59,103 nt of DNA from an uncultured Gammaproteobacteria bacterium (GTDB lineage: Bacteria; Patescibacteriota; Microgenomatia; UBA12405): contig CAZOQV010000003.1 of the NCBI GenBank assembly GCA_964582365.1, forward strand, positions 1 through 59,103. Direction: 5' to 3'. Below are positions 7,887 to 36,921 of the stretch, one piece after another. Positions within the stretch are counted from its first letter, which is position 1, and each line of letters starts with the position of its first letter. The position numbers and the translations under genes were made by a program. A model generated the notes under the pieces. That model searched no databases. It worked only from the letters and a program-made list of their open reading frames with translations, and had not been told where the DNA came from.

Positions 7887-7923
7887 ATTTAGTTATTTAG
7901 TAAATTAGTAATTAGTAAATAGT
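7887..7923. repeat. TTAGTAA-type heptamer array filling the whole galE / four-helix-bundle spacer; left arm of an inverted pair
   Basis: Sequence atttagttatttagtaaattagtaattagtaaatagt. Positions 7906-7923 (TAGTAATTAGTAAATAGT) are complementary in 17 of 18 positions to 8298-8315. Confidence 0.85.
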
Positions 7924-8280: not shown

Positions 8281-8287
8281 AAATAAT

Positions 8288-8335
8288 TTTACTACCTACT
8301 ACTTACTAATTACTACTAACTAATCAACTACTTCA
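8288..8335. repeat. TTACTAC/TTACTAA heptamer array (reverse complement of the TTAGTAA family); right arm of the inverted pair
   Basis: Sequence tttactacctactacttactaattactactaactaatcaactacttcac. It overlaps the metK stop codon (8328-8330). Confidence 0.85.
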
Positions 8336-9434: not shown

Positions 9435-9458
9435 ATTTTTCCTTTAATAATTAATAAA

Positions 9459-9558
9459 GGCTTGTCTTCCGAAATTTCGGAAATTGCACCGTGGAACTCC
9501 AAATCAATGGAAGAACTCGGTTGCTAGCCCCGCAACTGCGGGGTCCTCTTGACAAAGC
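9459..9558 (-). promoter_or_regulatory. SAM riboswitch of the SAM-I clan (SAM-I / SAM-IV / SAM-I-IV type) in the metK leader
   Basis: Minus-strand RNA: GCUUUGUCAAGAG-GACCCCGCAGUUGCGGGGCUA-GCAACC-...-GGUGCAAUUUCC-GAAAUUUCGG-AAGACAAGCC. Conserved core strings AAGAG, GCAACC and GGUGCnAAUUCC are present. P1 is UUGUC/GACAA. It lies 25 nt upstream of the metK ATG. Confidence 0.7.
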
Positions 9559-9572
9559 AAATTAATATTAAT

Positions 9573-10529
9573 CTATTTTTTGTGGGTTTTCAACTTTTCT
9601 TTTGTCTTTTTATCAAAAAACAATAAAACTCCACCAAACAAAGAATTCATTATTCCTAATATTCCTAAAAAGGTTGACATTAATAAAATACTTTCAGTTG
9701 TCCCTCCAACTTGTAAAAAGAAAAATAAATATAACTGTTCTCTGGCTCCAAAACCACCAATCGAAATTGGCAACAATAAAATTGTTGAAATAATTGGAAT
9801 AAAAATAAACACTGACAACATCCCAATATTAGTTCCAAGTTGTCTTCCTATAAACCATATTTGCAAAATCCAAAATACTTCACTTAGAATTGATATCAAT
9901 AAACATTTTGTTATCTGTTTTTTATTCTCACCTTTTAATAAATTAAAAATGTCGTTAAATTTATTTAAAAATTTTATTTTTAATAAAAGTTTTGATACAT
10001 CAAAAAAATAAACTATTATATAAAATAAAAAACAAATTAATGACAAAACTATCAACAAATAAAAAACATAATCTGGGATAAGTAATCCTATTTTTCCTCC
10101 TATAATTGCTGCTATTAATCCTAAAAATATAAAAACAGAAAATCCAATAAATCTATCTAAAAAAACTGACCCAAACACTTTTGTTTTTGAAACCTCCGGA
10201 TATTTTTGATCAATTACTATCCATTTTGAAATTTCTCCAGCAATCATTGTTGGGAAAAATAAAGAAGAAAAAGCAGCCAAAAAACTAGCTCTAGTAAAAG
10301 TTAAAAGAGTTTTAATCTTTATTTTTTTAAACACCAGCAGACTCCACCTAAAGGAAATTAATGTCACCAAAAAGAAACTCCAAACAATATTTAACAAAAC
10401 AAACCAAAGTGGAATATTTTTAATTTCACCAAAAAGTTTTAAAACATCAACTTTTTTAAAAGCAAAATAAATTAAAACAGCTGAAAATATAAATTTAAAC
10501 AACTTCGACCCAAAAATTTTCTTTAACAT
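9573..10529 (-). CDS. UPF0104 / lysylphosphatidylglycerol-synthase-TM-region-like (flippase-like) membrane protein
   Basis: 318 aa, about 8 TM segments. The N-terminus KLFKFIFSAVLIYFAFKKVDVLKLF and the overall architecture are typical of this family, which is often found in glycan clusters. Confidence 0.55.
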   Translation of the reverse strand: MLKKIFGSKLFKFIFSAVLIYFAFKKVDVLKLFGEIKNIPLWFVLLNIVWSFFLVTLISFRWSLLVFKKIKIKTLLTFTRASFLAAFSSLFFPTMIAGEISKWIVIDQKYPEVSKTKVFGSVFLDRFIGFSVFIFLGLIAAIIGGKIGLLIPDYVFYLLIVLSLICFLFYIIVYFFDVSKLLLKIKFLNKFNDIFNLLKGENKKQITKCLLISILSEVFWILQIWFIGRQLGTNIGMLSVFIFIPIISTILLLPISIGGFGAREQLYLFFFLQVGGTTESILLMSTFLGILGIMNSLFGGVLLFFDKKTKEKLKTHKK

Positions 10530-10573: not shown

Positions 10574-11812
10574 ATGAAAATTTTACTTTTAAGTCACATT
10601 TTTCCTCCAGCCATTGACGGTGGCTCAAAAGTCATTTACAAGCTCGGTCAGTATTTAAAATCCCAAAATCATCAAACTCTTTATGTTTCCTCCAATTGTT
10701 CCAGCACCGACGATTTCGTCAAATCAAAATATAAAAAAATATCTGCAATCAACGATCTATCATCTACGATCTATTTACCCGTTTATCACCATCTTCGTCG
10801 TCCTCTGAAACTATTTCAAATTATTTGTACTAATTTTTTATTCATAAATCCTAATTCTTATTTCATAAATCTAATTAAAATATTTCAGAAAGGTCCAATC
10901 TTTAAAATTATTCCATTTTTAAAAGCCATTCACCAAATTTTAAAATTCAAACCAGATTTAATTATCGCCGGCCCACTTCCAACTACCATCATTTTGTATG
11001 CTGAATTAATAAAAAAAATATCTAGGATCTATAATCTACGACCTAAGGTCTTACTTAATGCTTCCTTTCATCCCACTGATCAAGACTTTCAACAAAAACC
11101 ATTAATTAACACCTTAAAAAAGGCAGATTATTTATGGGCTCTTACCCAATCAGAAACCGATTATTTTATTAAAAACTTTAATATCGATCCTCAAAAAATT
11201 ATTCTTGCTGGTAATGGAGTTGATGAAAATTTTCTCACCACCAAAAAAATATCTACGACCTACAATCTACGATCTAACATCTTATTTATCGGTTCTCTTG
11301 CTTCCCATAAACGTGTTGATCTTTTAATCAAATCATTTTCTACGATCTACAATCTACGATCTAACGCCTCACTTACTATTGCTGGTCAAAAAACTCTTTA
11401 CTATCCTCAAATTGAAAAACTAATCAAATCTCTCGACCCAAAAACAAAAGCTAAAATTAAATTCATTTTTGATTTTAAATCAAAAGATTTAGCCAAAATT
11501 ATCGACAATTGCTCAGTTTTAATTTTACCTTCAGTTCAAGAAAGTTTCGGTCTCGTTATTATCGAAGCTTGGGCTCGCCAAAAACCTGTCATCTGTGCCG
11601 ATATTCCAGCTTTAAAAGAATTAGTTAAGAAATCAAATGGAGGTTTATTGTTTAAAGCTGACGATCAAAACGATTTGACCAAGCAAATTCAATTTATTTT
11701 AGACAATCCGCAAAAAGCACAACAACTGGGACAAAATGGTTACGATTATGTTAAAAATAACTATACTTGGAAAAAAGTTGGTCATAAAATATGTCAAGAA
11801 ATATCATTCTAA
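10574..11812 (+). CDS. glycosyltransferase family 4 (GT-B fold) carrying four ATCTACG-type arrays
   Basis: N-terminus KILLLSHIFPPAIDGGSKV. C-terminal domain ILPSVQESFGLVIIEAWARQKPVICADIPALKELV (E-x7-E region). Confidence 0.8.
   Translation: MKILLLSHIFPPAIDGGSKVIYKLGQYLKSQNHQTLYVSSNCSSTDDFVKSKYKKISAINDLSSTIYLPVYHHLRRPLKLFQIICTNFLFINPNSYFINLIKIFQKGPIFKIIPFLKAIHQILKFKPDLIIAGPLPTTIILYAELIKKISRIYNLRPKVLLNASFHPTDQDFQQKPLINTLKKADYLWALTQSETDYFIKNFNIDPQKIILAGNGVDENFLTTKKISTTYNLRSNILFIGSLASHKRVDLLIKSFSTIYNLRSNASLTIAGQKTLYYPQIEKLIKSLDPKTKAKIKFIFDFKSKDLAKIIDNCSVLILPSVQESFGLVIIEAWARQKPVICADIPALKELVKKSNGGLLFKADDQNDLTKQIQFILDNPQKAQQLGQNGYDYVKNNYTWKKVGHKICQEISF
10741..10775 (+). repeat. ATCTACG-family heptamer array (degenerate, 5 units), in-frame in GT4
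   Basis: Units ATCTGCA ATCAACG ATCTATC ATCTACG ATCTATT, read as ISAINDLSSTIY. Confidence 0.7.
11040..11067 (+). repeat. ATCTACG-family heptamer array (4 units), in-frame in GT4
   Basis: Units ATCTAGG ATCTATA ATCTACG ACCTAAG, read as ISRIYNLRPK. Confidence 0.75.
11252..11279 (+). repeat. ATCTACG-family heptamer array (4 units), in-frame in GT4
   Basis: Units ATCTACG ACCTACA ATCTACG ATCTAAC, read as STTYNLRSN. It matches the array at 11339-11366 at 26 of 28 positions, including a 20-nt identical run. Confidence 0.85.
11339..11366 (+). repeat. ATCTACG-family heptamer array (4 units), in-frame in GT4
   Basis: Units TTCTACG ATCTACA ATCTACG ATCTAAC, read as STIYNLRSN. Confidence 0.85.
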
Positions 11813-12246
11813 TTATTAGTCCTATTTTAATAGTAATAGCCGGAATTCTAATTTGGCGATTATTTTTTTATCTTCCACCATCAAATTCTGTCAAAATTAA
11901 AATTAAAAATATTGATTACAAAATCGAATTAGCCAAAACTACAACTCAAAAATCAAAAGGGTTGTCTGGAAGAGAAACTCTTTGTAAAAATTGCGGCATG
12001 CTTTTTATTTTTGGCTTTGAAACCAATCTCCCTTTTTGGATGAAAAATACCCTTATTCCTCTTGATATAATTTGGCTTGATAAAAATGGAAAAATTGTCG
12101 ACATTCAAACTATTACTGAAATTAATTCCACCAAAATTCATCAAAATCAAACTCCAGCCAAATATGTACTCGAACTAAACGCTAATGATTCACAAAAAAT
12201 AAACCTTAACATCGGCGATGTTATTCAGTTACCCAATACTTTATAA
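11791..12246 (+). CDS. DUF192 domain protein
   Basis: N-terminal TM segment, then ELAKTTTQKSKGLSGRETL..CGMLFIF......FWMKNTLIPLDIIWLDKNGKIV, the DUF192 signature. Overlaps the upstream GT4 by 22 nt. Confidence 0.75.
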   Translation: MSRNIILIISPILIVIAGILIWRLFFYLPPSNSVKIKIKNIDYKIELAKTTTQKSKGLSGRETLCKNCGMLFIFGFETNLPFWMKNTLIPLDIIWLDKNGKIVDIQTITEINSTKIHQNQTPAKYVLELNANDSQKINLNIGDVIQLPNTL

Positions 12247-12276
12247 CTTTATAAACTTTATAACTTGACAAACTTC
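12238..12276 (+). repeat. CTTTATAAC/CTTGAYAAAC 8-9-nt tandem array spanning the DUF192 stop and the TTG start of the next GT2
   Basis: Sequence actttataactttataaactttataacttgacaaacttc. It shares AACTTTATAACTTGA with 15596-15647. Confidence 0.75.
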
Positions 12277-13248
12277 TCTATAATTATTCCAAACTACAAC
12301 GGTGCCAATTTTTTAACCGATTGTCTTAACTCACTTAAAAAAGCTATCGATAATTGTCCTAGTTCCGAATTCGAAATAATTTTGGTTGATAATAATTCCC
12401 ATGACAATAGTCTTGAAGTTTTTGAAAATATTATTCCTAAAAATTTTAATTATCGGATTTTATTAAATTCCCAAAATAATGGTTTCGCTAAAGCTGTAAA
12501 TCAAGGTATCGAAAAAGCTAAATATAAATGGGTAGTCTTGCTAAATAATGATCTGACCATGGAAGCAAATTGGTTTCAATTAATTTCTGAAAATATTAAA
12601 AAAAATAAAGATCCTAAAATAGCCACTTTTTTTGGTACTGTTTTAAATAAAGATGGCACCAAATTTGAATCCCAAGGTTTAAACTTTTTTTATTCTGGCA
12701 AATGCCAAAATATTTCTAATGGCAAAAAATTTCATAAATCAAAAATCTTAAATCTTAAATCTTCTCTTGTTTGGGGAAGTTCCGCTGCTTTTGTTGTTTA
12801 CAATAAAGAAATATTAACTAAATCTGGTTCTTTTGATGAAGATTTTTTTGCTTATGAAGAAGATGTTGATGTTGCTTTGCGACTTCACAATTTAGGCTAT
12901 AAAACTTTATACATTCCTCAAGCTATTTCTTATCACCTTGGAGGTGGCACTAGTAATAAAATGGGGATATTTAGATATAAAATGGATGCTAAAAATTGGC
13001 ACTATATTATTATTAAAAACTTTTCGACACCAGAAATTATAAAAAAATTTTTCAAAATTACAGAAGAACGCCTCAGAAACTTATCAGGATTAACTAAGCA
13101 AACCATCCATGCCTATAAAATAAAAGCATTTTTTTATTTACCTTTCATTATAATTTCTACCTACGGTCAAGTTTTGATAAATATTCCCAAAATGTTAAAA
13201 AAACGCAAACAAATCCAAAAATTGTTAAAATTAGAAATTAGACATTAG
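12265..13248 (+). CDS. glycosyltransferase family 2
   Basis: FSIIIPNYNG, ILVDNNSHDNS, NNGFAKAVNQG and FFAYEEDVD (DxD/ED region). TTG start; there is no in-frame ATG before the conserved SIIIP strand. Confidence 0.85.
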   Translation: MTNFSIIIPNYNGANFLTDCLNSLKKAIDNCPSSEFEIILVDNNSHDNSLEVFENIIPKNFNYRILLNSQNNGFAKAVNQGIEKAKYKWVVLLNNDLTMEANWFQLISENIKKNKDPKIATFFGTVLNKDGTKFESQGLNFFYSGKCQNISNGKKFHKSKILNLKSSLVWGSSAAFVVYNKEILTKSGSFDEDFFAYEEDVDVALRLHNLGYKTLYIPQAISYHLGGGTSNKMGIFRYKMDAKNWHYIIIKNFSTPEIIKKFFKITEERLRNLSGLTKQTIHAYKIKAFFYLPFIIISTYGQVLINIPKMLKKRKQIQKLLKLEIRH

Positions 13249-13258
13249 AAATTTTGAT
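13224..13258 (+). repeat. TTRGAAA heptamer array containing the stop codon of the GT2 gene
   Basis: Units GTTAAAA TTAGAAA TTAGACA TTAGAAA TTTTGAT. The reading frame gives LKLEIRH, then TAG at 13246-13248. Confidence 0.85.
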
Positions 13259-13265
13259 TTAATTT

Positions 13266-14402
13266 ATGATCATCGGCATAGATATCTCCACTATTCCCTA
13301 CAAAACCGGCGTTAGTAATTACACTTTAAACCTCGTTAGAAATTTAGTTAAAATTGACAAAATTAATACCTACAAACTTTTTTATTCATCTCTTCGTCTT
13401 CCTTTTCCATCAGAAATAATGGAGATCAAAAAAAATCATCCTAACATCAAACTTTATCACTATAAATTACCTCCAACTTTTCTCCAAATTTTATGGAACA
13501 AATTAAAACTTTTTCCAATTGAATTTTTTATTGGTTGTTGCGATGTTTTTCACACCTCAGACTGGACCCAACCCCCAACCATAAAAGCCAAAACTATTAC
13601 TACTGTTCATGATCTTACTCCTTTTTTACATCCAGAATGGCATCATCCTAAAGTAATCGTTGCTCATAAAAATAAAATGTTCTTAGCTTCTAAAAAATGT
13701 TCTAAATTTATTTGCGTTTCTCAAAGTACTAAAAATGATTTATTAAAAATATTTTCCAAAATTAATCCCCAAAAGATTGAAGTTGTTTACGAATCAGCTG
13801 AAGAAAAATATGGAAAATTTTTAAAACTTTCTCCAGAAGAACAACAAAAGAAAAAGGGGACTATCGAAAAACAATATGGTTTAGAAAAATTTATTTTAGC
13901 CCAAGGTACGAGAGAACCTCGAAAAAATCTCAAAAGATTAATTGATGCTTTTATTATTTTTAAGAAAAAAAATCCAAAGTGTAAAGTTGATTTAGCTATT
14001 ACTGGAAAATACGGGTGGGGAGAAGATGTTGACGGCATCAAAGATCCTTCAGTAAAAATTCTTGGGTTTATTCCTGAAAAAGACATGGTCGCTCTCCACG
14101 CCAGCGCTCTTTGTTTAATTTATCCTTCTTTATATGAAGGTTTTGGTTTACCCCTAGTTAAATCTTTAAAAGTTGGCACTCCTATTATTACTAGTAATGT
14201 TTCATCTATGCCAGAAGTTGCCGGCAACGCTGCTCTTTATGTCAATCCTAATTCAATCGAAGATTTGGCCAAAACCATTACTAAAATGATTAAAGTTTCT
14301 GCCGTCAGAAAAAAATTAATAGCCAATGGCTTAATTCAAGCCAAAAAATTTGATTGGATGAAAACCGCCCAACAAACCTTATCGGTTTATCAAAATTTAT
14401 GA
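13266..14402 (+). CDS. glycosyltransferase family 4
   Basis: IIGIDIS N-terminus. C-terminal IYPSLYEGFGLPLVKSLKVGTPIITSNVSSMPEVAG. Confidence 0.85.
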   Translation: MIIGIDISTIPYKTGVSNYTLNLVRNLVKIDKINTYKLFYSSLRLPFPSEIMEIKKNHPNIKLYHYKLPPTFLQILWNKLKLFPIEFFIGCCDVFHTSDWTQPPTIKAKTITTVHDLTPFLHPEWHHPKVIVAHKNKMFLASKKCSKFICVSQSTKNDLLKIFSKINPQKIEVVYESAEEKYGKFLKLSPEEQQKKKGTIEKQYGLEKFILAQGTREPRKNLKRLIDAFIIFKKKNPKCKVDLAITGKYGWGEDVDGIKDPSVKILGFIPEKDMVALHASALCLIYPSLYEGFGLPLVKSLKVGTPIITSNVSSMPEVAGNAALYVNPNSIEDLAKTITKMIKVSAVRKKLIANGLIQAKKFDWMKTAQQTLSVYQNL

Positions 14403-15517
14403 TAATTGGAATTGATGGAAATGAAGCCAATATTAAAAATCGTGTCGGCGTTGGCCAATATGCTTTTAATCTCTTAAAAAATATCTATTCACTCGATCAA
14501 AAAAACCAATATATTATTTATTTGAAAGATCAGCCTTTATCAGATTTACCAAAAGTTAGACATAATTGGACATATAAAATCTTTGGACCTCAAAAACTTT
14601 GGACAAAAATTGCTCTTCCTTTTCATCTTTTTACTCAAAAGGAAAAATTAGATATTTTTTATTCTCCCAGCCATTATTCTCCTCAATTTGCTCCTTGCCC
14701 TACCATTCCTACTATTCATGATTTAGGCTATCTCCAATTTAAAAGTCAATTCACCAAAAAAGATTTTTATCAATTAACTAATTGGACCAAACAATCAATT
14801 AAAAAATCCGCCCATATTGTCACTGTCTCTAATTTTTCTAAAACTGAAATAGAAAAAATTTATCACATTAATCCTGAAAAAATCACTATCGCTTACAATG
14901 GGGTCGATAACTTTCCAAAAATCGATGATAAAAAACAAAAGGAAATCCTTTCCATCTACGATCTACAATCTAAAAACTATTACCTATACCTCGGTACTCT
15001 TAAACCAAACAAAAATATACCTTTTTTAATTAGATCTTTTGCAAAATATCTACGATCTACGATCTACGATCTAAAACCTAAGCTTGTAATAGCTGGTAAA
15101 AAAGGTTGGTTGTTTGACGAAATTTTTTCCACTGTTAAACAAGAGGGTATTGAATCCAGTATTATTTTCACCGATTTCATTGACGATAATCAAAAAACTA
15201 TTCTTTATCAAAATGCCAAAGCCTTAATTATGCCCAGCATTTATGAAGGATTTGGCATCCCTGTTATCGAAGCCATGAAATTAAATACTCCAGTAATTTC
15301 CAGTGATATTCCACCATTAAAAGAAGTAATTGAAAATAATGGCTTTTATTTTGACCCTGGCAATCAAGAAGAATTAGTTCATCAATTAATCAATTTTGAA
15401 AGACTTGATTCTAAAGAAATAAAAAAAATGACAGATCTTGCCAAAATCAGAGCCGATTTTTTCACTTGGACCAACACTGCCAAATCTGTTTTACAAGTTT
15501 TTGAACAATTCGTTTAA
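14399..15517 (+). CDS. glycosyltransferase family 4 with two ATCTACG arrays
   Basis: Start set to ATG 14399 (MIIGIDGNEAN), which forms ATGA with the upstream stop. C-terminal IMPSIYEGFGIPVIEAMKLNTPVISSDIPPLKEV. Confidence 0.85.
   Translation: MIIGIDGNEANIKNRVGVGQYAFNLLKNIYSLDQKNQYIIYLKDQPLSDLPKVRHNWTYKIFGPQKLWTKIALPFHLFTQKEKLDIFYSPSHYSPQFAPCPTIPTIHDLGYLQFKSQFTKKDFYQLTNWTKQSIKKSAHIVTVSNFSKTEIEKIYHINPEKITIAYNGVDNFPKIDDKKQKEILSIYDLQSKNYYLYLGTLKPNKNIPFLIRSFAKYLRSTIYDLKPKLVIAGKKGWLFDEIFSTVKQEGIESSIIFTDFIDDNQKTILYQNAKALIMPSIYEGFGIPVIEAMKLNTPVISSDIPPLKEVIENNGFYFDPGNQEELVHQLINFERLDSKEIKKMTDLAKIRADFFTWTNTAKSVLQVFEQFV
14954..14974 (+). repeat. ATCTACG-family heptamer array (3 units), in-frame
   Basis: Units ATCTACG ATCTACA ATCTAAA, read as SIYDLQSK. 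It lies directly before the first strand (YYLYLGTL) of the C-terminal Rossmann domain. Confidence 0.8.
15048..15075 (+). repeat. ATCTACG heptamer array (3 perfect units + 1), in-frame
   Basis: ATCTACG x3, then ATCTAAA, read as YLRSTIYDLK. Same core as 20508-20535. Confidence 0.9.
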
Positions 15518-15564
15518 ATAGGTCTAAATTTGGAATAAAATGACAAATTTTGCCTATTTATACG

Positions 15565-15582
15565 ATCCCGATTTATCGGGAT
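15565..15582. other. perfect 8+8 palindrome ATCCCGAT-TT-ATCGGGAT in the 136-nt spacer after the GT4 gene
   Basis: Read directly from the sequence. It is relatively GC-rich within an AT-rich spacer. No U-tract follows on either strand, so terminator and operator cannot be distinguished. Confidence 0.3.
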
Positions 15583-15595
15583 AAACAGTTCCTCT

Positions 15596-15647
15596 ATATT
15601 TACAACTTTATAACTTGATGAACTTTACAACTTGATAAACTATAATC
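15596..15647 (+). repeat. CTTTAYAAC/CTTGATRAAC 8-9-nt tandem array ending in TATAAT, 7 nt before the acetyltransferase ATG
   Basis: Sequence atatttacaactttataacttgatgaactttacaacttgataaactataatc. Confidence 0.75.
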
Positions 15648-15653
15648 ATATAT

Positions 15654-16247
15654 ATGAAAGATCGAACTGGTAAGAATCTAAACACCCAAGAAATTACTCA
15701 AAAGATTATCAATCGTTTTAAAACCATTTGTCTTGAATTTTGGCTTATGATTTTACGTTTTGTTGGTTTTATTCCTCTTCATTTCGTTAGAAAAATCTTT
15801 TATATGGCTTCAGGAATTAATATGCCTTGGAATTCCACTATTCATATTGGCGCTAATTTTTTTAATCCCTCAAACATCAAAATCGGTCACGACACTATCA
15901 TCGGCGATCATTGTTTTCTTGACGGTCGCACTAAATTAATTATCGGTAATCATGTTGGCATTGCCAGTCAAGTTTTGATTTACAACGACGAACATAATAT
16001 TCATTCCAGCAATTACGAAAATTCTTTTGGCCCAGTTGAAATTGGTGATTATGTTTTTATAGGACCTCGAGCTATAATTTTACCTAATATAAAAATTGGA
16101 AAAGGGGCTGTGGTTGCCGCTGGAGCAGTCGTCACTAAAGATATTCCTGATTTTGAAATTTGGGGTGGAATACCTGCTAAAAAAATAGGTGATCGAGAAA
16201 ATAAAAACCCAAATTACAAACTCGGTCGAGCCATGTTATTTCAATAA
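15654..16247 (+). CDS. hexapeptide-repeat (left-handed beta-helix) sugar O-acetyltransferase
   Basis: Repeated [LIV]-G-x4 hexapeptides (IGHDTIIGDHCFLDG, IGNHVGIASQVLI, IGDYVFIGPRAIILPNIKIGKGAVVAAGAVV) and a C-terminal GIPAKKIG. Confidence 0.8.
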   Translation: MKDRTGKNLNTQEITQKIINRFKTICLEFWLMILRFVGFIPLHFVRKIFYMASGINMPWNSTIHIGANFFNPSNIKIGHDTIIGDHCFLDGRTKLIIGNHVGIASQVLIYNDEHNIHSSNYENSFGPVEIGDYVFIGPRAIILPNIKIGKGAVVAAGAVVTKDIPDFEIWGGIPAKKIGDRENKNPNYKLGRAMLFQ

Positions 16248-16248
16248 T

Positions 16249-16794
16249 ATGATAAAAAAAACACTAATCATTTTATTTTGTCTTTTTAACGTATTTACCA
16301 TTGTTTATTTAATTACTCCAACTCCAATTCTTCCTGATCTGGTTAATAGTGTTAAATCTGACGAACCAGGTGATACTACTCAATTAGCCAATGTTTCCGC
16401 CTATTACACTAACATGACTCGCACTGAAGTCATGAATTTTTATAAAGCTTATTACAGTGGTTCATTCAGAATTATTCTTAATCATCCACCCGAAAAATCT
16501 AAAGAAATAATTAAAGACACTATTCAAAGTTACTATTTTGAAGAATTTGTTTTACCTTTTAAAGAATCACTTTTTATCAATGGTTTTGAATGGGAAAATG
16601 ATGTTTTTACTAAAGTCGAAGGCAGAGTTAAAAATAAACTGATTTTTAAAGACAAAGAATATAAGGCTAAAATTACCATTAAAACCATTCCTACTTCCAA
16701 ATCAAAACGTATCGCTGCTTTTCTGTTCACCGAAGCCGCCATTATTTTCGCTATTTACGCTTATGTTTCTTTTTTAAGGAAAAAACATGACTAA
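16249..16794 (+). CDS. hypothetical protein with N- and C-terminal TM anchors
   Basis: Start set to ATG 16249 (MIKKTLIILFCLF). No recognisable family motif. Confidence 0.4.
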   Translation: MIKKTLIILFCLFNVFTIVYLITPTPILPDLVNSVKSDEPGDTTQLANVSAYYTNMTRTEVMNFYKAYYSGSFRIILNHPPEKSKEIIKDTIQSYYFEEFVLPFKESLFINGFEWENDVFTKVEGRVKNKLIFKDKEYKAKITIKTIPTSKSKRIAAFLFTEAAIIFAIYAYVSFLRKKHD

Positions 16795-17737
16795 TCCTCT
16801 CCTTTCAATTATTATTATTTCTTACAATACCAGTCAAATTACCGTTAATTGTCTTAAGTCTATTTTTCAAGACAAAGGCTTAAAAGAAATACCTTACGAA
16901 ATTATTATCATCGATAACGATTCAAAAGACGATTCTGTTGCTCAAATTAAAAAATTAAAAAAATCATTAGATATTAGAAATTTGAAATTAGAAATTATTG
17001 AAAACAAATTTAATGCTGGTTTTGGAAAAGCCAATAATCAAGGATTAAAAATTGCTAAAGGTAATTATATTTTATTACTAAACTCAGATACTCTAATTTT
17101 ACATTCAGCCATCAGCCAATCATTAAATTGGCTTTGTTCACATCCTGAAGTTTCTGTTTGTACTGCTCAATTATTAAATAAAGATAAAACAATTCAAGCT
17201 TCTGGTGGTTTTTTCCCCAATCTTTCCAATGTTTTAACTTGGTGCTTAAATCTCGATGATCTTCCCTTTATTAATAAAATAATCAAACCATTTCATCCTC
17301 ACACTCCCGCTTTTTATACTCATGACAATTTTTATTTAAAAGATCACCAACAAGATTGGGTAACTGGTGCTTTTATGTTGATCCGTTCATCTCACTTAAA
17401 ATCAACTGGTGGTTTTGATGAAAATTATTTTATGTATGGTGAAGAAGTTGAACTTTCTTATCGTATTAAAAAAAATAATCCTCAATTTCAAACTTGGTAT
17501 TTAATTGGCCCTCAAATTATTCACCTTGGTGGTGCATCAGCTCAAAATAGAATCGATCCACTTTTAAACGAATATCGAGGAATTTTATCTTTTTTTAAAA
17601 AACACAAAAATAATTTTGAATTCAAAATATGTGAATATCTAATTAAATTTAATGCCTTTAGCCGTGGTGTTATATACTCAATAAGAGGTCATAAAAACAC
17701 CGCCTCTCTCTACTTCCAAATATGTTCAAAAATCTAA
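16787..17737 (+). CDS. glycosyltransferase family 2 with an internal TTRGAAA array
   Basis: LSIIIISYNT, IIIDNDSKDDS, NAGFGKANNQG, YFMYGEEVEL. Confidence 0.85.
   Translation: MTNPLLSIIIISYNTSQITVNCLKSIFQDKGLKEIPYEIIIIDNDSKDDSVAQIKKLKKSLDIRNLKLEIIENKFNAGFGKANNQGLKIAKGNYILLLNSDTLILHSAISQSLNWLCSHPEVSVCTAQLLNKDKTIQASGGFFPNLSNVLTWCLNLDDLPFINKIIKPFHPHTPAFYTHDNFYLKDHQQDWVTGAFMLIRSSHLKSTGGFDENYFMYGEEVELSYRIKKNNPQFQTWYLIGPQIIHLGGASAQNRIDPLLNEYRGILSFFKKHKNNFEFKICEYLIKFNAFSRGVIYSIRGHKNTASLYFQICSKI
16967..16994 (+). repeat. TTRGAAA heptamer array (4 units), in-frame in GT2
   Basis: Units TTAGATA TTAGAAA TTTGAAA TTAGAAA, read as LDIRNLKLEI. It lies immediately upstream of the conserved N-x-GF-x-x-A-NQG motif. 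Confidence 0.85.
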
Positions 17738-19137
17738 AATTAAATATTTTTCGACCAATAATTGCCATTCTTATTTTGTTTATTCCTCTTTATCCTAAAT
17801 TTCCTTTAGCCAGTGTCAAGGGAACTTATGTCGCTATTCGCCTTGATGATATTGTTATCGCTTTGGCCATTTTAATTTGGTGTATTTATCAAATAATTCA
17901 CAAATTTCCAGTTTTTAAAGTTAAAATTACCAAATTATTTTTAGTCTATTTTACGGCTATTGTTGCCAGTTTTGTGACTGCTTTTTTAATCTACCAAACC
18001 GAACCTGCTAACATACTTATTCTTCATTTAATTAGACGTTTTCAGTATATGTCTTTGTTTTTTATTGCTATCCAAAGTGTCAAATCAAAACAAGATTTAA
18101 ATTTTAGCTATATTTTCCTTTTAATAACTACTTTTTTTGTCAGTCTTTATGGATATGGCCAAAAATATATCGGTTTTCCGGTAATTTCAACCATGAACTC
18201 TGAATTTTCCAAAGGCCAATTACTTCAAATGAGTACTTGGACTCGTATCAGTTCTACTTTTGCCGGACACTACGATTTAGCTGCCTTCTTAAGCGTCGCT
18301 TTAATAATTATTGGCATTGTTTTTATCATAAGTAAAAATAAATTAATCAAAATATCAAGTTTAATTATTTGGATTGCTGCTTATCCAATTTTAACTTTTA
18401 CTGCCTCTCGAGTTTCCATTTTCGCTTTTATCGGTGGCATTTGTTTTACTCTTTTTGTTCTAAAAAAATATTTTTGGACTATTCCTTTCATTTTTCTTTT
18501 TTTCTTTAGTATTATTAACTCAGCTGAATTAAGTCAAAGATTATTGGCTACCATTCCTGCTTTTAAGACTCAATTAACTAAAAAAACCACTATTACTCCA
18601 ACTATTGTTCCAACCGTCATTCCAACTTCTGTTCCAGTTGTCGCTGTTATTTCTCAAACTCCAAATTCTATTAAAATATCACCAACTCCAACTATGGTTC
18701 GTCACGTTTCCACTGAAATTTTTCCTACTGCCGACATTGACGCTGGTGTTGCTCGATCTGGCGAAATTCGTTTTAATGTTGAATGGCCACGAGCTTTACG
18801 GGCTTTTAGTAAAAATCCCATTACTGGTAGTGGTCTCGGGTCTATCACCTTAGCTACCGACAATGATTATCTCCGATCTTTAGGAGAAAGTGGGTTATTA
18901 GGTTTTGCCACTTTTGCAATTATTAATCTATATTTCATAATAAAAACAATCCCTAAAATATTTAAAAGAAAATCTACCGTCTGCGATCAATTATCTATTA
19001 TTTTTTTAGGTTGTTTATTAACAACTTTAGCTAACGCTATTTTTATCGATGTTTTTGAAGCTTCAAAAACTGCTTATCTTTTTTGGATAATGATGGGCTC
19101 TTATTACCAATTACTCAATTTTAAAGATGAAAAATAA
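17722..19137 (+). CDS. O-antigen ligase / Wzy-like polymerase family membrane protein
   Basis: About 10 TM segments. Wzy_C-like FTASRVSIFAFIGG. A large loop has a Pro/Thr/Val-rich linker (TPTIVPTVIPTSVPVV...SPTPT). C-terminal TM pair. Confidence 0.65.
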   Translation: MFKNLKLNIFRPIIAILILFIPLYPKFPLASVKGTYVAIRLDDIVIALAILIWCIYQIIHKFPVFKVKITKLFLVYFTAIVASFVTAFLIYQTEPANILILHLIRRFQYMSLFFIAIQSVKSKQDLNFSYIFLLITTFFVSLYGYGQKYIGFPVISTMNSEFSKGQLLQMSTWTRISSTFAGHYDLAAFLSVALIIIGIVFIISKNKLIKISSLIIWIAAYPILTFTASRVSIFAFIGGICFTLFVLKKYFWTIPFIFLFFFSIINSAELSQRLLATIPAFKTQLTKKTTITPTIVPTVIPTSVPVVAVISQTPNSIKISPTPTMVRHVSTEIFPTADIDAGVARSGEIRFNVEWPRALRAFSKNPITGSGLGSITLATDNDYLRSLGESGLLGFATFAIINLYFIIKTIPKIFKRKSTVCDQLSIIFLGCLLTTLANAIFIDVFEASKTAYLFWIMMGSYYQLLNFKDEK

Positions 19138-20338
19138 AAGAAAGATTTTAATGATTACTCCATATATTCCACGTCTTTCTCAGTCTGGTGGTCAAAACAG
19201 CTCTTTTTATTCTATAAAATATTTATCACCCGACAACGACATAACTTTAATTTGTCTTAGCGCTGACGAAGAAGGTTTAGATGACGTCAAGCCATATTGT
19301 TTAAAAGTTGTCGTCGTTAAACGAGGTAAAACTTGGGATCCTAAAAAAGTTTTATTAACTGGTCTCAGCCCTTATCCTTTTTTAGTGATGAAACATATCA
19401 ACAAAAACTTTCGTCAAGCAATTCAAAATGAACTAGATTCCAACTCTTTTGACCTCATCCACTGTGACTGTTTTTATCCAATGCCCAACATTCCCGATAC
19501 TAAAATCCCTATCGTCTTAGTCGATCTTACAATTGAATATAATGTTTATAAACATTACGTCGAGACTGTCACTGGCTGGAAAAAAATAATTAAGCCACTT
19601 CTTTGGATTGATGTTCTTAAGTTAAAATACTGGGAAACTCATTATTGGAAGCATACTCACACTGTTGTTGCCTTTGCCGAAGAAGACCAAAAACTAATTT
19701 CCAAAATTACTGGCCGTACCGATATTAAACTTTTTAAAAACGGAGTGGACAATAAATTTTTTGATTCAAAACCAAAAACTGACAAAAGCAAACATCCTTC
19801 CATTCTCTTTGGTGTTTCTAATATGAAGTGGATGCAAAATCGCGAATCAGTCGAAATGATTATTAAAGATTCTTGGCCTGAAATTAAAAAGGAAATACCC
19901 GAATGTAAACTTTACATTATTGGTCGTCACGCTCCTGATTATTACGGTCATTATCAATCCGATGATGTAATTGTTGAAGAAGCTGATTTTGATGGTCAAC
20001 CAAAAGATCCCATCTATTATTATCAACATTGTTGGACCTTAATTGCTCCAATGGGCAGTGGGGGAGGAACTCGTAATAAATTTCTTGAAGCCATGGCCTG
20101 TAAACTTCCAATTGTTACCACTCCAGAAGGTATGGGCGGCATTAAAATTGAAAACTTTAAACAATCTATAGTTTGTGACTATAAAGATATAGCCAAATAT
20201 ACCATTAATCTTTTAAAAGATGATAAAAAAAGAACTATTATGGGGAATGAAGCCAATAAACTCATCAGCAGTAAATATTCATATCAAAGTAGTGTTAATG
20301 GCTTAAACCAAATTTATAAAGAAATTACCAAAATATAA
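19127..20338 (+). CDS. glycosyltransferase family 4
   Basis: KILMITPYIPRLSQSGGQ N-terminus. C-terminal IAPMGSGGGTRNKFLEAMACKLPIVTTPEG. Confidence 0.8.
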   Translation: MKNKRKILMITPYIPRLSQSGGQNSSFYSIKYLSPDNDITLICLSADEEGLDDVKPYCLKVVVVKRGKTWDPKKVLLTGLSPYPFLVMKHINKNFRQAIQNELDSNSFDLIHCDCFYPMPNIPDTKIPIVLVDLTIEYNVYKHYVETVTGWKKIIKPLLWIDVLKLKYWETHYWKHTHTVVAFAEEDQKLISKITGRTDIKLFKNGVDNKFFDSKPKTDKSKHPSILFGVSNMKWMQNRESVEMIIKDSWPEIKKEIPECKLYIIGRHAPDYYGHYQSDDVIVEEADFDGQPKDPIYYYQHCWTLIAPMGSGGGTRNKFLEAMACKLPIVTTPEGMGGIKIENFKQSIVCDYKDIAKYTINLLKDDKKRTIMGNEANKLISSKYSYQSSVNGLNQIYKEITKI

Positions 20339-21259
20339 ATGGATTTATCAATCATAATTTTAAACTATAATTCCGCTGATTATTTGAAAAAATGTCTGGA
20401 AAGTATCAGTAAATCAGATCTTGGTAATTATAAATATGAGGTAATTGTTGTTGATAATTCTTCTACTGATAACAGTATTGATCTCGCCAAAAATTTTACT
20501 AATAATTATCTACGATCTACGATCTACGATCTGCTTAAAACTAATTTGGGCTTTGCTCATGGCAACAATCAAGGTCTTAAAGAGATAGACTCTAAGACTA
20601 GATTTGTTTTATTTTTAAATCCAGACACTCTTGTCGAGAAAGATACTTTAAAAAATATGATTAGTTTTTTTGATCAAAATAAGAATGTCGATGCCGCTAC
20701 TTGTCAAATAAATCTTGCTCTTACAAACCAAATGCAACCAGAATGCCATCGTGGTTTTCCTACTCCTTGGAATTCTTTATGTTACTTTACTGGTTTATCA
20801 AAGTTATTTCCTCATTCTAAAATATTTTCTGGCTATTTTATGGGTGATTTAGATATTTCTGTTCCACACAAAATTGATGCCTGTGTCGGTGCTTTTTTAA
20901 TGGTTAAAAAAGAAGTTGGCGATAAAATTAAATGGTGGAATGAAAAATATTTTTTCTACGGCGAAGATCTTGATTTCTGTTATCAATTAAAGAAAAATAA
21001 TTTTAATTTATATTTCAATCCAAATTGTAAAATTACCCATTTTCAGGGAGTTTCTTCTGGTCTAATAACTAAAAGCAAACATCTTTCCAAGGCATCTCGA
21101 GAAACCAAAATTAAAGTAGCCAAAGCCAGTACTCAAGCCATGAAAATTTTTTATCAAGAAAATCTTTTATCCCATTATTCAGCTCCAACTAAATTTTTTG
21201 TCATGAGTGGTATTAAAATACTAGAACTTAAAAGAATTCTCAAAGCCAAATATCTATAA
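20339..21259 (+). CDS. glycosyltransferase family 2 with an internal ATCTACG array
   Basis: LSIIILNYNS, VVDNSSTDNS, NLGFAHGNNQG, FFYGEDLDF. Confidence 0.85.
   Translation: MDLSIIILNYNSADYLKKCLESISKSDLGNYKYEVIVVDNSSTDNSIDLAKNFTNNYLRSTIYDLLKTNLGFAHGNNQGLKEIDSKTRFVLFLNPDTLVEKDTLKNMISFFDQNKNVDAATCQINLALTNQMQPECHRGFPTPWNSLCYFTGLSKLFPHSKIFSGYFMGDLDISVPHKIDACVGAFLMVKKEVGDKIKWWNEKYFFYGEDLDFCYQLKKNNFNLYFNPNCKITHFQGVSSGLITKSKHLSKASRETKIKVAKASTQAMKIFYQENLLSHYSAPTKFFVMSGIKILELKRILKAKYL
20508..20535 (+). repeat. ATCTACG heptamer array (3 perfect units + 1), in-frame in GT2
   Basis: ATCTACG x3, then ATCTGCT, read as YLRSTIYDLL. It lies immediately upstream of NLGFAHGNNQG. Confidence 0.9.
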
Positions 21260-21310
21260 GACAGTCTAGTATCTTCCAATATCTTCTAATATATTCTAAA
21301 ATAATCTAAT
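21251..21310 (+). repeat. 10-nt-period direct repeats (consensus ATNTTCTAAT) filling the spacer up to the fic ATG
   Basis: Units tatctataag acagtctagt ATCTTCCAAT ATCTTCTAAT ATATTCTAAA ATAATCTAAT. The last unit contains the A and T of the start codon (21309-21311). Confidence 0.7.
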
Positions 21311-22205
21311 GAAAGATTATAATGATCTTGTTATTCAAATTGAAGCTTTAAAACTTTTTTTTAAAAAACTTGAAACCCATCAAGCTATTAAAAAAAATAT
21401 TCTTCGAAATTCTTTATTAAAAAGTGCCAGATTTTCAAGTAAAATAGAAGGTGCAGATTCAAAACTAGAAATTGATAATCTTTTCAAGGCCTATCAATAC
21501 ATAACTTTAAAAAAATCGCCAAAAGAGATATCTTTAAATTTTATAAAGGAACTCCATAAAATTGTTTTAAATAATATTTCTTCAGACTCTGGGCAATTTC
21601 GTACCGAACCTTGTGCTATTTACAACACTGCTGGTGTCGCTATTTATCTGGCTCCTCCAGCTCAAAAAATTCATGAATTACTAAATAATTTAATTGAAGA
21701 GATTAATAACAGTCAAGAACATTGTTTAATCAAAGCTGCTATTTTTCAATTTAAATTTGAAAAAATACATCCATTTTTGGACGGTAACGGTCGTATCGGC
21801 CGTCTTATTTCTTATCTAATTTTATATAAAAATGGTTTTTCCTTTAATGGCTATTTATCTCCAGAAGAATATATAAGTAAATATCGTGAAATTTATTATG
21901 ATTGTTTAGACTCAGACAAAGATTATCAACCTTTCGTTAAGTTTTTTTTAGAATCTATTCTAAATCAGATTAAAACAACTTTTAATGATTTAAAAAATCC
22001 AAATAATCTTAACCATCTTTTACCTCGCCGTCGTGAAATTTATGAAATAATAAAAGATCACCCCAATTGTTCCTTTGATTTTATAAATCGTCGTTTTACT
22101 AAAATTAATCCAAAAACACTTCACTACGATTTATCTAGATTACAAAAAGAAAATTTAATTATTAAAGCTGGTGTCTCTCGTGGAGTCACTTATGTTATAA
22201 AATAA
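21309..22205 (+). CDS. Fic family protein (class II, N-terminal inhibitory motif) with a C-terminal winged-helix-like tail
   Basis: Canonical Fic motif HPFLDGNGRIGRL. N-terminal SSKIEG matches the (S/T)xxxE(G/N) inhibitory helix. The C-terminal ~70 aa is HTH-like (TLHYDLSRLQKENLIIKAGVSRGVTY). Confidence 0.9.
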   Translation: MKDYNDLVIQIEALKLFFKKLETHQAIKKNILRNSLLKSARFSSKIEGADSKLEIDNLFKAYQYITLKKSPKEISLNFIKELHKIVLNNISSDSGQFRTEPCAIYNTAGVAIYLAPPAQKIHELLNNLIEEINNSQEHCLIKAAIFQFKFEKIHPFLDGNGRIGRLISYLILYKNGFSFNGYLSPEEYISKYREIYYDCLDSDKDYQPFVKFFLESILNQIKTTFNDLKNPNNLNHLLPRRREIYEIIKDHPNCSFDFINRRFTKINPKTLHYDLSRLQKENLIIKAGVSRGVTYVIK

Positions 22206-22218
22206 AATAAAACAAAAC

Positions 22219-23364
22219 ATGAAACATATTGTTATTGACGCTCGTCTCTATGGCCCAAAACACACCGGTATTGGTCGCTACACCAAAAATCTTCTCAAAG
22301 CCTTAGTTAAACTCTCTGATTTTAAAAATTATAAATTTACTTTAATAATTTATAAAGAATTAGAAAAAGATGTTAAAAAAGATTTAGGTGATAATTTTAA
22401 TTATGTTACCACCAACATTAAACATTATTCCCTAAAAGAACAACTTTTTTTACCTTTTATTCTTTATAAATTGCACCCAGATTTAGTCCATTTCACTCAT
22501 TTTAATAAACCAATTCTTTATTTTAAAAAATCAGTCGTCACTATTCATGACTTAATTAAACATTTCTCTAAAGGCAAAGAAACCACCACTAAAAGTCAAC
22601 TTTTGTACAAAATAAAATATCTTGGTTATTTAATTTTAATTCGCACCATTGTTACTCGAAATCAAATTATTGTTCCTAGTAATTTTTGGCGCGATTTTTT
22701 AATCAAAAAATATCACTTAAAAGATTCCCACGTTGTCACCACTTATGAAGCCGTCGACCCTACTTTTTTACCAAACACCAATAAAGAAGAAGTTGAAAAT
22801 TTGAAATTAGAAATTGGAAATTGGAAATTGGAAATTGGAAATTATATTATTTATACGGGTAATCTTTATCCCCATAAAAATATTATTGTTGTTTTAAAAG
22901 CTCTTAAAAAATTATCCAACATAAAACTAAAAATTATTTGTGCTCGTGATTTTTTTAGTGAAAAATTATCAAAACAGATTAACCATCTTAAAATTAAAGA
23001 CCAAGTTGAATTTCTTGGTTATCTCGACGATCAACAATTTAAAGAAGTTTATCAACAGGCTTTAGCCCTTGTTCATCCATCTTTAATGGAAGGTTTCAGT
23101 TTAACTGGTCTTGAAGCTATGGCTTTAAATTGTCCGGTTGTATCGTCAAATTCAAGTTGTCTTCCAGAAATTTACGGTGATTCAGTTCTCTATTTTGACC
23201 CTCAAAATCCAGACGATTTAGTTGAAAAAATTAACCAACTAAAAAACAATTTAGGCCTACGCCAAAAATTAATTGATCTCGGACATCAACAACTCAAAAA
23301 ATATTCCTGGAATAAAACTGCCGAACAAAGCATGACTGTTTACAAGAAAATATTAGAAATTTGA
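22219..23364 (+). CDS. glycosyltransferase family 4 with internal and terminal TTRGAAA arrays
   Basis: HIVIDARLYGPKHTGIGRY N-terminus. C-terminal VHPSLMEGFSLTGLEAMALNCPVVSSNSSCLPEIYG. Confidence 0.85.
   Translation: MKHIVIDARLYGPKHTGIGRYTKNLLKALVKLSDFKNYKFTLIIYKELEKDVKKDLGDNFNYVTTNIKHYSLKEQLFLPFILYKLHPDLVHFTHFNKPILYFKKSVVTIHDLIKHFSKGKETTTKSQLLYKIKYLGYLILIRTIVTRNQIIVPSNFWRDFLIKKYHLKDSHVVTTYEAVDPTFLPNTNKEEVENLKLEIGNWKLEIGNYIIYTGNLYPHKNIIVVLKALKKLSNIKLKIICARDFFSEKLSKQINHLKIKDQVEFLGYLDDQQFKEVYQQALALVHPSLMEGFSLTGLEAMALNCPVVSSNSSCLPEIYGDSVLYFDPQNPDDLVEKINQLKNNLGLRQKLIDLGHQQLKKYSWNKTAEQSMTVYKKILEI
22793..22841 (+). repeat. TTRGAAA heptamer array (7 units, four perfect TTGGAAA), in-frame in GT4
   Basis: Units TTGAAAA TTTGAAA TTAGAAA, then TTGGAAA x4, read as ENLKLEIGNWKLEIGN. 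It lies directly before the first strand (YIIYTGNL) of the C-terminal domain. Confidence 0.92.
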
Positions 23365-23387
23365 AATTAAAAATTTGAAATTAAAAA
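23353..23387 (+). repeat. TTRGAAA-family array containing both the TGA stop of one GT4 and the TTG start of the next
   Basis: Units TTAGAAA TTTGAAA TTAAAAA TTTGAAA TTAAAAA. Stop at 23362-23364 and start at 23375-23377 sit in successive copies of the 14-nt unit TTTGAAATTAAAAA. Confidence 0.85.
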
Positions 23388-36913: not shown

Positions 36914-36921
36914 TATATTAT

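Follow-up and report, generated by a model that had tools for sequence, protein, structure and literature searches.

Heptanucleotide tandem repeats inside glycosyltransferase genes of a Candidatus Shapirobacteria glycan cluster

The closest described system to the repeats reported here is the TAACTGA family of heptamer direct repeats found in marine Beggiatoaceae, cyanobacteria and some Bacteroidetes (MacGregor 2015, PMC4679880), for which copy-number differences in 7-nt steps are recorded between the close strains Cyanothece PCC 8801 and 8802 (PMC4679880). Other families include the cyanobacterial short tandemly repeated repetitive (STRR) heptanucleotides and the GGGNATC repeats of Xanthomonas and Nostoc (Rehm 2015, PMC4692102). 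A general excess of heptanucleotide simple sequence repeats (SSRs), noted since 1990 for STRR and since 2007 in genome surveys (the latter as summarized in PMC4692102 and PMC4679880), has no accepted mechanism or function. In Neisseria meningitidis, heptanucleotide-repeat phase variation operates on a glycosyltransferase gene, pglE (PMC7157529). Here we analyze arrays of the heptamer ATCTACG in a 59,103-nt stretch of DNA (contig CAZOQV010000003.1), which we call the window and which is the scope of the analysis for the source organism. The window has a G+C content of ~30%, is 95% coding and holds 55 genes, nine of which encode glycosyltransferases (GTs). As the homologues of one array-bearing gene, GT4B, are named Candidatus Shapirobacteria or Woesebacteria, the host is a genome of the candidate phyla radiation (CPR/Patescibacteria), and the arrays belong to the glycan cluster of a Candidatus Shapirobacteria genome. 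A search of the literature on SSRs and simple repeats in Patescibacteria gave no relevant paper.

The repeat is a DNA-level entity in hypervariable linkers

When (ATCTACG)2 was searched with up to two mismatches, the window gave 17 overlapping matches, every one on the plus strand, where shuffled sequences led us to expect 0.13. Exact ATCTACG heptamers number 12 (2.25 expected) and all 12 fall inside seven arrays of 2.7-5 units, each of which lies within a coding sequence (CDS); the seven are spread over two GT4 genes and one GT2 gene (Table 1). An earlier note on this DNA, made from the letters alone, had placed these arrays correctly to within a few bases and Pfam confirmed its host genes. 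Our translations agreed with the pieces of a cyclic I-Y-D-L-R-S-T peptide that it had listed (YLRSTIYDL, STIYNLRSN and SIYDLQSK). Array 3 directly precedes the beta strand with which the C-terminal Rossmann domain opens (hereafter GT4 site 1), and array 7 sits between the DxSxD region and the N-x-G-F motif of GT2c. Arrays 6 and 7 had been said to share perfect units plus flanks although their GT4 and GT2 hosts are unrelated, and we found 26 identical bases, TATCTACGATCTACGATCTACGATCT (15046-15072 versus 20506-20532), in the same phase and encoding YLRSTIYDL in both genes. Computation on the unit also bore out that the repeat has no stops in any of the three sense frames and that its reverse complement is stopped in all three. 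As the opposite strand has TAG in all frames, the sense orientation is forced, and as 7 and 3 are coprime, three or more units give one cyclic peptide whatever the frame, which makes the in-frame placement automatic. Hence, neither property counts as independent evidence. Two other possibilities were rejected. The arrays are not assembly artefacts, as separately made assemblies contain them too (L043, L140 and Logan and NCBI strain variants), and GATC (Dam-site) spacing is not the conserved feature, since related ATCTACC or ATCTACA arrays lack GATC.

The codons of the repeat are sparingly used elsewhere in the window, where CTA makes up 8% of leucine codons, ACG 2% of threonine, ATC 16% of isoleucine, CGA 18% of arginine and TAC 20% of tyrosine codons, and these rare synonymous codons recur throughout all ATCTACG copies. 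The joint log10 likelihood of the array codons was -44.2 versus -27.5 +/- 2.2 at window codon usage, a distance of 7.6 standard deviations, and none of 2000 simulation runs came near the observed likelihood. The window holds a second heptamer family, GAAATTR (AAATTAG/AAATTGG), whose CDS copies have the in-frame TAG patched to TTG (16966-16997) or to TGG (48896-48934, in the gene of isoleucyl-tRNA synthetase, IleRS). L046, a relative with ATTGAAA as its unit, has the TGA that would fall in frame patched to TGT at two loci. These stop patches show that a DNA repeat was imposed on the reading frame, rather than that a peptide motif was kept.

A metagenome scan with the GT4B alignment gave 80 loci, ~12 of which keep the whole gene order, and codon alignments were built for six array-bearing genes. 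Array residues were 19% identical to their orthologues with 26% gaps, versus 58% identity and 1.7% gaps for the rest of the proteins (Mann-Whitney P ~1e-34 and ~1e-69), and in every host protein the array columns had the lowest conservation and the most gaps. L045 (70-85% identity) is the nearest orthologue with conserved synteny. In place of six of the seven ATCTACG arrays it shows either a gap or a short stretch of unrelated sequence, and the same holds for the arrays of other heptamer units in the aligned genes; the sole exception among the ATCTACG sites is GT4B site 1 (14954), where it carries a related CTACAAT array. At the array 1 site L045 is shorter by three codons and L046 and L047 have a GC-rich insert, and at the array 2 site a 6-codon gap is found in L045, L046, L047, L049 and L058. 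At the array 7 site no array is present in L045, L046 has ATCTACC ATCTACC ATCTACA and L051 has ATTCTAG x4.5. At array sites L046 has units such as ATTGAAA, ATCTACC and GCTAAAA, and L051 units such as ATTCTAG and AACTAAG. In L050 the site of the TAAATCT array of the window (12732-12763) is taken by ATCTACC/ATCTACG units. The GAAATTG array at 22789-22843 is not in L045 and is shorter by exactly 21 nt (three units) in L046, and the GT4C/GT4D junction (23348-23388) holds AATTGAA arrays in L046 and L051. At GT4B site 2, ATCTNNN arrays are found in orthologues down to 68% identity (L124, L126, L128 and L125) and not in L045. No frameshifted orthologue was found among the aligned host genes. The same sites therefore hold other heptamer units or short inserts in other lineages.

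Structure prediction gave a concordant picture. In the AlphaFold2 model of GT4B (mean predicted local distance difference test score, pLDDT, 90.3) array 5 takes up the end of helix 177-186 and the next loop, and array 6 takes up the end of helix 206-218 and loop 219-227 before strand 228-232, a hypervariable linker. The 10-residue block that contains most of array 6 has a mean pLDDT of 74, among the lowest of the model. Both the orthologue alignment and the structure prediction were checks proposed in the earlier note: the first showed arrays that differ or are gapped between relatives and lie in variable, indel-rich columns, and the second put the GT4B arrays at helix ends and loops, as its expectation of surface loops required. 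Its view that the nucleotide repeat and not the protein is the conserved entity also held, given the rare codons, the most variable columns, the absence of most arrays from L045 and the other units in relatives. The pattern that the note had named as refuting it, the same amino acids with scrambled codons in orthologues, was not seen, with a partial exception at GT4B site 1, where an S-x-Y-x-L-x-S-K motif is conserved. We conclude that the repeat is a DNA-level entity and that the arrays occupy hypervariable, indel-prone surface linkers.

Table 1 Array-bearing genes and heptamer arrays of the window
Feature	Position	Strand	Context
GT4A, GT4 / Glycos_transf_1 family (Pfam)	10574-11812	+	four ATCTACG arrays
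Array 1: ATCTGCA ATCAACG ATCTATC ATCTACG ATCTATT (five degenerate units)	10741-10775	+	GT4A N-terminal domain; encodes ISAINDLSSTIY
Array 2: ATCTAGG ATCTATA ATCTACG ACCTAAG	11020-11047	+	GT4A; encodes SRIYNLRPK
Array 3: ATCTACG ACCTACA ATCTACG ATCTAAC ATCT	11251-11282	+	GT4A site 1; encodes STTYNLRSNI
Array 4: TTCTACG ATCTACA ATCTACG ATCTAAC	11338-11365	+	GT4A site 2; encodes STIYNLRSN
TAAATCT x4 array	12732-12763	+	inside GT2 gene 12265-13248
GAAATTR/AAATTAG array	13225-13249	+	makes C-terminus (LKLEIRH) and stop codon of GT2 gene 12265-13248
GT4B, GT4 family (Pfam)	14399-15517	+	two ATCTACG arrays
Array 5: ATCTACG ATCTACA ATCTAAA A	14954-14975	+	GT4B site 1; encodes IYDLQSK
Array 6: three perfect units + ATCTAAA	15048-15075	+	GT4B site 2; encodes (Y)LRSTIYDLK
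GAAATTR array	16966-16997	+	GT2 gene 16787-17737, position homologous to array 7 of GT2c; encodes LDIRNLKLEI
GT2c, glycosyltransferase family 2 (Pfam)	20339-21259	+	one ATCTACG array
Array 7: three perfect units + ATCTGCT	20508-20535	+	GT2c; encodes (Y)LRSTIYDLL
GAAATTG x7.9 array	22789-22843	+	longest array of the window; site 1 of GT4 gene 22219-23364 (GT4C); encodes VENLKLEIGNWKLEIGN
GAAATTR array	23348-23388	+	spans stop of GT4 gene 22219-23364 and junction with GT4 gene 23375-24460 (GT4C/GT4D)
GAAATTR array	35467-35497	+	intergenic
GAAATTR arrays	36859-36920	+	C-terminus and stop of Mur ligase gene, spacer before EPSP-synthase-family gene at 36922
GAAATTR array	48896-48934	+	within IleRS gene 46885-49752; encodes ELEIRNWKLEIGN
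GAAATTR array	58246-58268	+	at/after stop codon of Wzy-like gene 57173-58249

Stability between strains, other units and the period-7 excess

Strains were compared on consensus assemblies, which report majority alleles. The Logan assembly L043 is 99.2% identical to the window across 7.2 kb, with zero indels and the same arrays (array 6 being identical), the NCBI metagenome contig L140 is 95% identical across ~10 kb, and four strain variants of GT4A (94-100% identical) are each 412 aa long. No unit-number change was found in the ATCTACG arrays across L043, L140 and the GT4A variants; unit number is stable between strains. The six ATCTACG arrays shared by L140 and the window differ by 12 substitutions in 173 nt (6.9%) versus 4.8% outside (P = 0.21). 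Array 6 reads ATCTACA ATCTACG ATCTATG in L140, and one A-to-G change separates the seemingly perfect array 6 (15048) from the state common to L140 and L124. One block event was seen, in which the AAATTAG array (13225-13249) is exchanged for a GC-rich hairpin in L140. As unit number is kept across strains and ATCTNNN is kept at site 2 in the distant orthologues given above, the arrays are old and length-stable, the opposite of a hypermutable tract.

The GAAATTR family is as abundant as ATCTACG, with at least nine arrays in the window, and its hosts are GT genes, IleRS, the C-terminus of a Mur ligase and intergenic spacers. About half of these arrays touch stop codons or spacers and about half are inside CDSs, and the intergenic copies either end with 5-16 nt left before a start codon or run across a stop codon. 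The IleRS array sits in a variable linker ahead of the anticodon-binding domain, and a variable linker of comparable length is present in solved IleRS structures. In relatives, ATCTACG arrays were found in the HhH-BRCT linker of NAD-dependent DNA ligase (LigA; L013 and L024) in a formyltransferase (Fmt; L017) and in DUF4012 protein(s) of L008, a locus with six ATCTACG-type arrays within 5.4 kb. The earlier note had the arrays confined to GT coding sequences, which, given these housekeeping and intergenic locations, does not hold as a general rule.

Perfect periodic runs of at least 12 matches occur five times at period 7 in the window, twice at period 14 and zero or one time at the other periods from 4 to 15, with ~0 in shuffled sequences. 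In 323 kb of syntenic Shapirobacteria loci we counted 41 period-7 arrays versus 0-12 for periods 5-11. Period 7 is thus specifically enriched in this lineage, and the preferred heptamer units differ genome by genome. The second commonest period in the related loci is 8, with 12 arrays; L053 and L055, two more distant relatives, have period-8 arrays of the CTAAAGCT / TCTAAAGC types at GT4B site 2 and at the GT4A site that matches window 11010-11050.

When one genome per species was scanned with (ATCTACG)3, 42 loci (L001-L042) from many phyla were returned, and in the four low-GC ones (L008, L013, L017 and L024, given above) the repeat lies in real genes. These 42 loci hold 62 further heptamer arrays of other units, for a total of 104 period-7 arrays in 276 kb versus at most 12 for any other period. 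Hence, the 42 hits sample a general heptamer excess, and we rejected the special status that they might seem to lend to ATCTACG. On the cross-phylum contigs (Verrucomicrobiota, Acidobacteriota, Chloroflexia and other phyla) neighboring arrays with differing units lie in clusters, as in L028, where GGTAGAC x5, GGTAGAT x5 and CGTAGAT x4 stand side by side, and several metagenome-assembled genomes (MAGs) give two to four of the contigs each. Viral contigs gave no match to (ATCTACG)3 and 11 matches to (GAAATTG)3; the latter contigs are 36-68% GC, the matches are mainly in short open reading frames (ORFs) and no link to a mobile element or CPR phage was found. A database search with a synthetic (STIYDLR)6 peptide returned just 11 small hypothetical ORFs from 1427 candidates.

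GC-rich, hairpin-like inserts such as CCCTGTCAAGGGAAGGG are present in relatives at sites that hold heptamer arrays in the window. They were located at L044 704-728, L046 2270-2294 and L047 6345-6381, in LigA of L024 and in L140 (versus window 13226-13270), and also in many GT4B homologues (for example P0024, P0028, P0088 and P0117); none was seen in the window. The inserts are read in different frames, as CPVKGRVGEGF, SSLHQGRMSEGQV or PRLVKEGDGGRF. The Rickettsia palindromic elements (RPEs), reportedly described by Ogata et al. in 2000, are said to be selfish DNA inserted in-frame in protein-coding genes. The GC-rich inserts are another class of passenger element carried in frame, one that recalls the RPEs.

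Inverted heptamer arrays also occur in the window. A 23S-rRNA-intervening-sequence-protein (IVP) or bAvd-like gene (PF05635; 7924-8280, minus strand) is flanked by a TTAGTAA-type array at 7887-7923 and a TTACTAC/TTACTAA array at 8289-8322, the arms of which are 18 nt long and 94% complementary with 374 nt between them. L045 is without this gene between the epimerase gene and metK, and L058 has a 72% homologue (4426-4737) that likewise lies within inverted arrays, of period ~8 nt. The block looks like an inserted cassette, or like an RNA stem of the kind seen in rRNA intervening sequences. L140 has a 95-nt spacer (5719-5813) instead of the ~1.7-kb block of IVP-like gene and metK (window 7891-9574), with both flanks 95% identical, and other relatives retain metK between the epimerase and an LPG-synthase-like gene.

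Several observations concern the host genes and the genomes compared. The listed ORF of GT4B begins at a TTG (14354); an exact-protein look-up with this version gave no match and the version that begins with the ATG at 14399 was matched, so the latter is probably the real start. A tandem repeat with a 10-nt unit, TCTAATATAT x4.6 (21265-21310), stands before a Fic/DOC-family gene (21309-22205) that separates GT2c from the next GT4 gene. The two GT genes are adjacent in L045 and L126, and the glycan cluster probably acquired the Fic/DOC-family gene as an insertion specific to this lineage. L024 and L125 share a MAG assembly (CAZWUG01), and L125 holds a Shapirobacteria-type GT cluster with 68% identity to GT4B of the window. 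The MAGs labelled 'uncultured Gammaproteobacteria' or 'Pseudomonadales' (CAZWUG01 of L024/L125, L008, L013 and L017) have a G+C content of 31-41%; these taxonomic labels are probably wrong, or the bins mixed.

Explanations for the arrays

GT4B sites 1 and 2 are ~95 nt apart, and identical strings of 12-16 nt are commoner between them within genomes than between genomes; the longest common substring averages 8.5 in the former comparison and 6.6 in the latter (P = 0.0025 by permutation). GT2b, GT4C site 1 and the GT4C/GT4D junction are three orthologous positions where TAG-type GAAATTR units in the window stand opposite TGA-type ATTGAAA units in L046. Such parallel unit change at dispersed loci requires either inter-locus sequence transfer or a trans-acting constraint. 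The exchange of a whole array for a hairpin in L140 also speaks for copying between loci. Aligned together with their 21-nt flanks, 23 ATCTACG-type arrays gave no conserved 5' flank, termini, inverted repeats or target-site duplications. The terminal inverted repeats and target-site duplications of miniature inverted-repeat transposable elements and insertion sequences are thus not a property of these arrays, and the only flank feature is a degenerate 3' last unit, ATCTAA(A/C).

We think that the arrays probably form a dispersed heptanucleotide repeat family of the STRR/TAACTGA kind, which has its origin at the DNA level, is filtered to stop-free permissive linkers and carries a passenger peptide. 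The ATCTACG arrays would be copies of a dispersed heptanucleotide tandem repeat, the 3' end of which decays to ATCTAAA or ATCTAAC. Slipped-strand duplication of 7-nt units would create the arrays, and short-tract templated repair or gene conversion would copy or homogenize them between loci. As the genome is 95% coding, the copies that survive would be those in the stop-free sense orientation at places that tolerate an added or replaced peptide of 7-10 residues, and the cyclic I-Y-D-L-R-S-T stretch would be a passenger. The link to GTs in the window could result from the GT-rich neighborhood, permissive linkers of the GT-A and GT-B folds and local copying, with no GT-specific function. In this scheme we infer the slippage origin, the short-tract conversion between loci and the lack of function.

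Several points weigh against a dispersed passenger repeat. Between strains the arrays act like ordinary sequence, with substitutions at the background rate and zero indels, so that ongoing slippage is not visible. The copying process was not observed, and no enzyme, template or mobile-element termini were found. Array 5 overlaps the S-x-Y-x-L-x-S-K motif of GT4B site 1, which is kept in GT4B orthologues down to ~64% identity with some codon variation (TAC/TAT), and part of this array may therefore be ordinary conserved coding sequence. Moreover, all three ATCTACG host genes of the window are GTs while only 9/55 genes are (nominal P ~0.003), and the placement of ATCTACG may carry a GT-linked bias of some degree; the distribution of the arrays in the source organism is read from these 59 kb.

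It is possible, if unlikely, that an active, family-specific copier (a master copy, an enzyme or an RNA template) writes genome-specific heptamers into loci, coding or not, and that selection spares the stop-free or patched copies. The footprint of such a copier would be concerted unit change, as between GAAATTR in the window and ATTGAAA in L046, together with repeated occupation of a site by different units. If this were true, the graded series of CPR orthologues would give a route to the machinery behind the bacteria-wide excess of 7-nt repeats.

Two other readings give the arrays a regulatory role. The earlier note had suggested contingency switches for the surface glycan, through a one-unit slippage in the perfect arrays. 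As contingency (phase-variation) loci, the arrays would by slippage of one or two heptamers shift the frame, toggle the GTs and diversify the surface glycan. The unit length is no multiple of 3 and the arrays are found within genes for the surface glycan, as is the heptanucleotide repeat that governs pglE phase variation in N. meningitidis (PMC7157529). The GAAATTG array of GT4C reaches 7.9 units, and its exactly three-unit difference from L046 looks as if only frame-preserving changes had been fixed. However, unit number is constant in L043, L140 and the four GT4A variants, in which point substitutions accrue at the background rate only, no orthologue is frameshifted and the tracts are just 2-4 units long. 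In addition, the same repeat families are found in essential genes (DNA ligase, formyltransferase and IleRS), for which an OFF state would be lethal. Rare OFF variants could hide behind the majority alleles of the assemblies, but we could not uphold the proposal and regard it as improbable. The other reading, to which we give little credence, is a cis-acting nucleic-acid signal: the arrays would bind a heptamer-reading protein, of an OB-fold/cold-shock type or a ring-shaped RNA-binding type, that acts on the long glycan operon by tuning transcription, translation, their coupling or the decay of its mRNA. Units that are homogeneous within a genome and different between genomes would fit co-evolution with a trans-acting factor, the transcribed strand carries all of the arrays, and the intergenic GAAATTR copies placed shortly before start codons or over stops resemble those of TAACTGA, for which translational regulation was proposed (PMC4679880). 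Yet the orientation of the CDS copies is already explained by stop codons, and arrays are lost in orthologues without visible compensation. A promoter/terminator scan gave 11 promoter-like sites around intergenic arrays versus 10.5 expected (no enrichment), an Rfam scan of the window matched two tRNAs and nothing else, hence no family for the arrays, and no candidate binding protein was identified.

The arrays might instead be recombination adaptors, with same-orientation arrays in paralogous GTs serving as frame-tolerant crossover points for deletion or domain shuffling in the glycan cluster, where the choice of register could match any of the three frames. The 26-nt same-phase identity of arrays 6 and 7 would suit such a role, as would the fact that three GT4 paralogues have arrays where the C-terminal Rossmann domain begins (site 1) and two GT2 paralogues have them at one shared position, and inverted heptamer arrays do flank a gene that some strains have and others lack. 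We nonetheless hold adaptors to be very improbable: at least 10 relatives show synteny and full-length orthology in a single high-scoring segment pair for all GT genes, with no chimeric or deleted arrangement seen, the identities are short (13-26 nt) and unrelated single-copy genes also carry arrays. Conservation or convergence at the protein level, by which an IYDLRS-like peptide would be a functional enzyme motif and the nucleotide periodicity incidental, can call upon the conserved motif at GT4B site 1 and its TAC/TAT variation. Against it stand the identical rare codons of all copies, the array columns that are the least conserved and most gapped of every host protein and the loss from L045 at six of seven sites. 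The string is also found across unrelated folds (GT-A, GT-B, the LigA linker and Fmt) and GAAATTR arrays occur in intergenic DNA too, so that a protein motif is close to refuted.

Comparison with described systems

The heptanucleotide SSR excess and the stop-free orientation of in-ORF copies in variable regions were already known (PMC4692102, PMC4679880). What differs here is the CPR host, the mainly coding locations, the sense-stop-free unit and the stable copy number. The genome of this CPR bacterium leaves very little space between genes, and the repeats are therefore preserved within enzyme genes of good conservation, for which dense orthologue sets make each gain, loss, unit change and stop patch directly readable. 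The locus is thereby a comparative system for asking whether arrays are copied between loci, why the period is 7 and whether they bring cost or benefit to the host. Heptamer arrays are also a source of lineage-specific inserts of 7-10 residues in CPR proteins. A caution follows for annotation: non-triplet short repeats in glycan genes should be called phase-variation switches only on the strength of length-polymorphism data.

The comparison with pglE illustrates the point. Both are heptanucleotide tandem repeats, hence of a non-triplet unit, within the CDS of a surface-glycan GT. The pglE tract, however, varies in length between and within isolates and so switches the gene, whereas neither tract-length nor out-of-frame polymorphism was found here among the consensus assemblies of related strains. 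Nor are the repeats concentrated in dispensable surface or restriction genes, as they are also in essential housekeeping genes (DNA ligase and formyltransferase of relatives, and IleRS). Like RPEs, the arrays are repeats at the nucleotide level, found in a reduced genome, that add a passenger peptide to otherwise conserved proteins at places where the structure is exposed and permits it. RPEs are palindromic and ~100-150 bp long, whereas the arrays are direct heptamer repeats of 22-55 nt without inverted repeats; the GC-rich hairpin inserts of L044, L046, L047, L024 and L140 are closer in spirit to RPEs.

Among the dispersed heptamers, the STRR and GGGNATC families likewise combine period 7, favored over neighboring periods, with many dispersed copies and species-specific unit families. 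Their G-rich members can form quadruplexes, whereas the arrays described here are AT-rich, short (2-8 units), length-stable between strains and mostly coding. The TAACTGA family (PMC4679880) resembles them in having one 7-nt unit in 2-6 repeats at many dispersed loci with related 7-mers interleaved, in having its in-ORF copies restricted to the orientation without stops and to variable stretches, termini or surface loops, and, as for GAAATTR, in having intergenic copies just before start codons or over the end of the upstream ORF. The 7-nt-step differences between close strains recorded in Cyanothece were not seen for the ATCTACG arrays, and the 21-nt difference of L046 is with a more distant relative. 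The unit sequences are unrelated, and the host here is a CPR genome that is 95% coding, with a unit that is stop-free in sense, a stable copy number and orthologous sites that can be traced along a graded series of relatives. The arrays thus show the head-to-tail 7-nt units, the many loci far above chance and the period-7 excess of the dispersed-heptamer class, and depart from it in location. That class lies predominantly between genes, near their starts and ends, with 144 of 169 TAACTGA sets wholly intergenic and 10 interior to ORFs, whereas here the CDSs of well-conserved enzymes hold every one of the seven ATCTACG arrays and about half of the GAAATTR ones.

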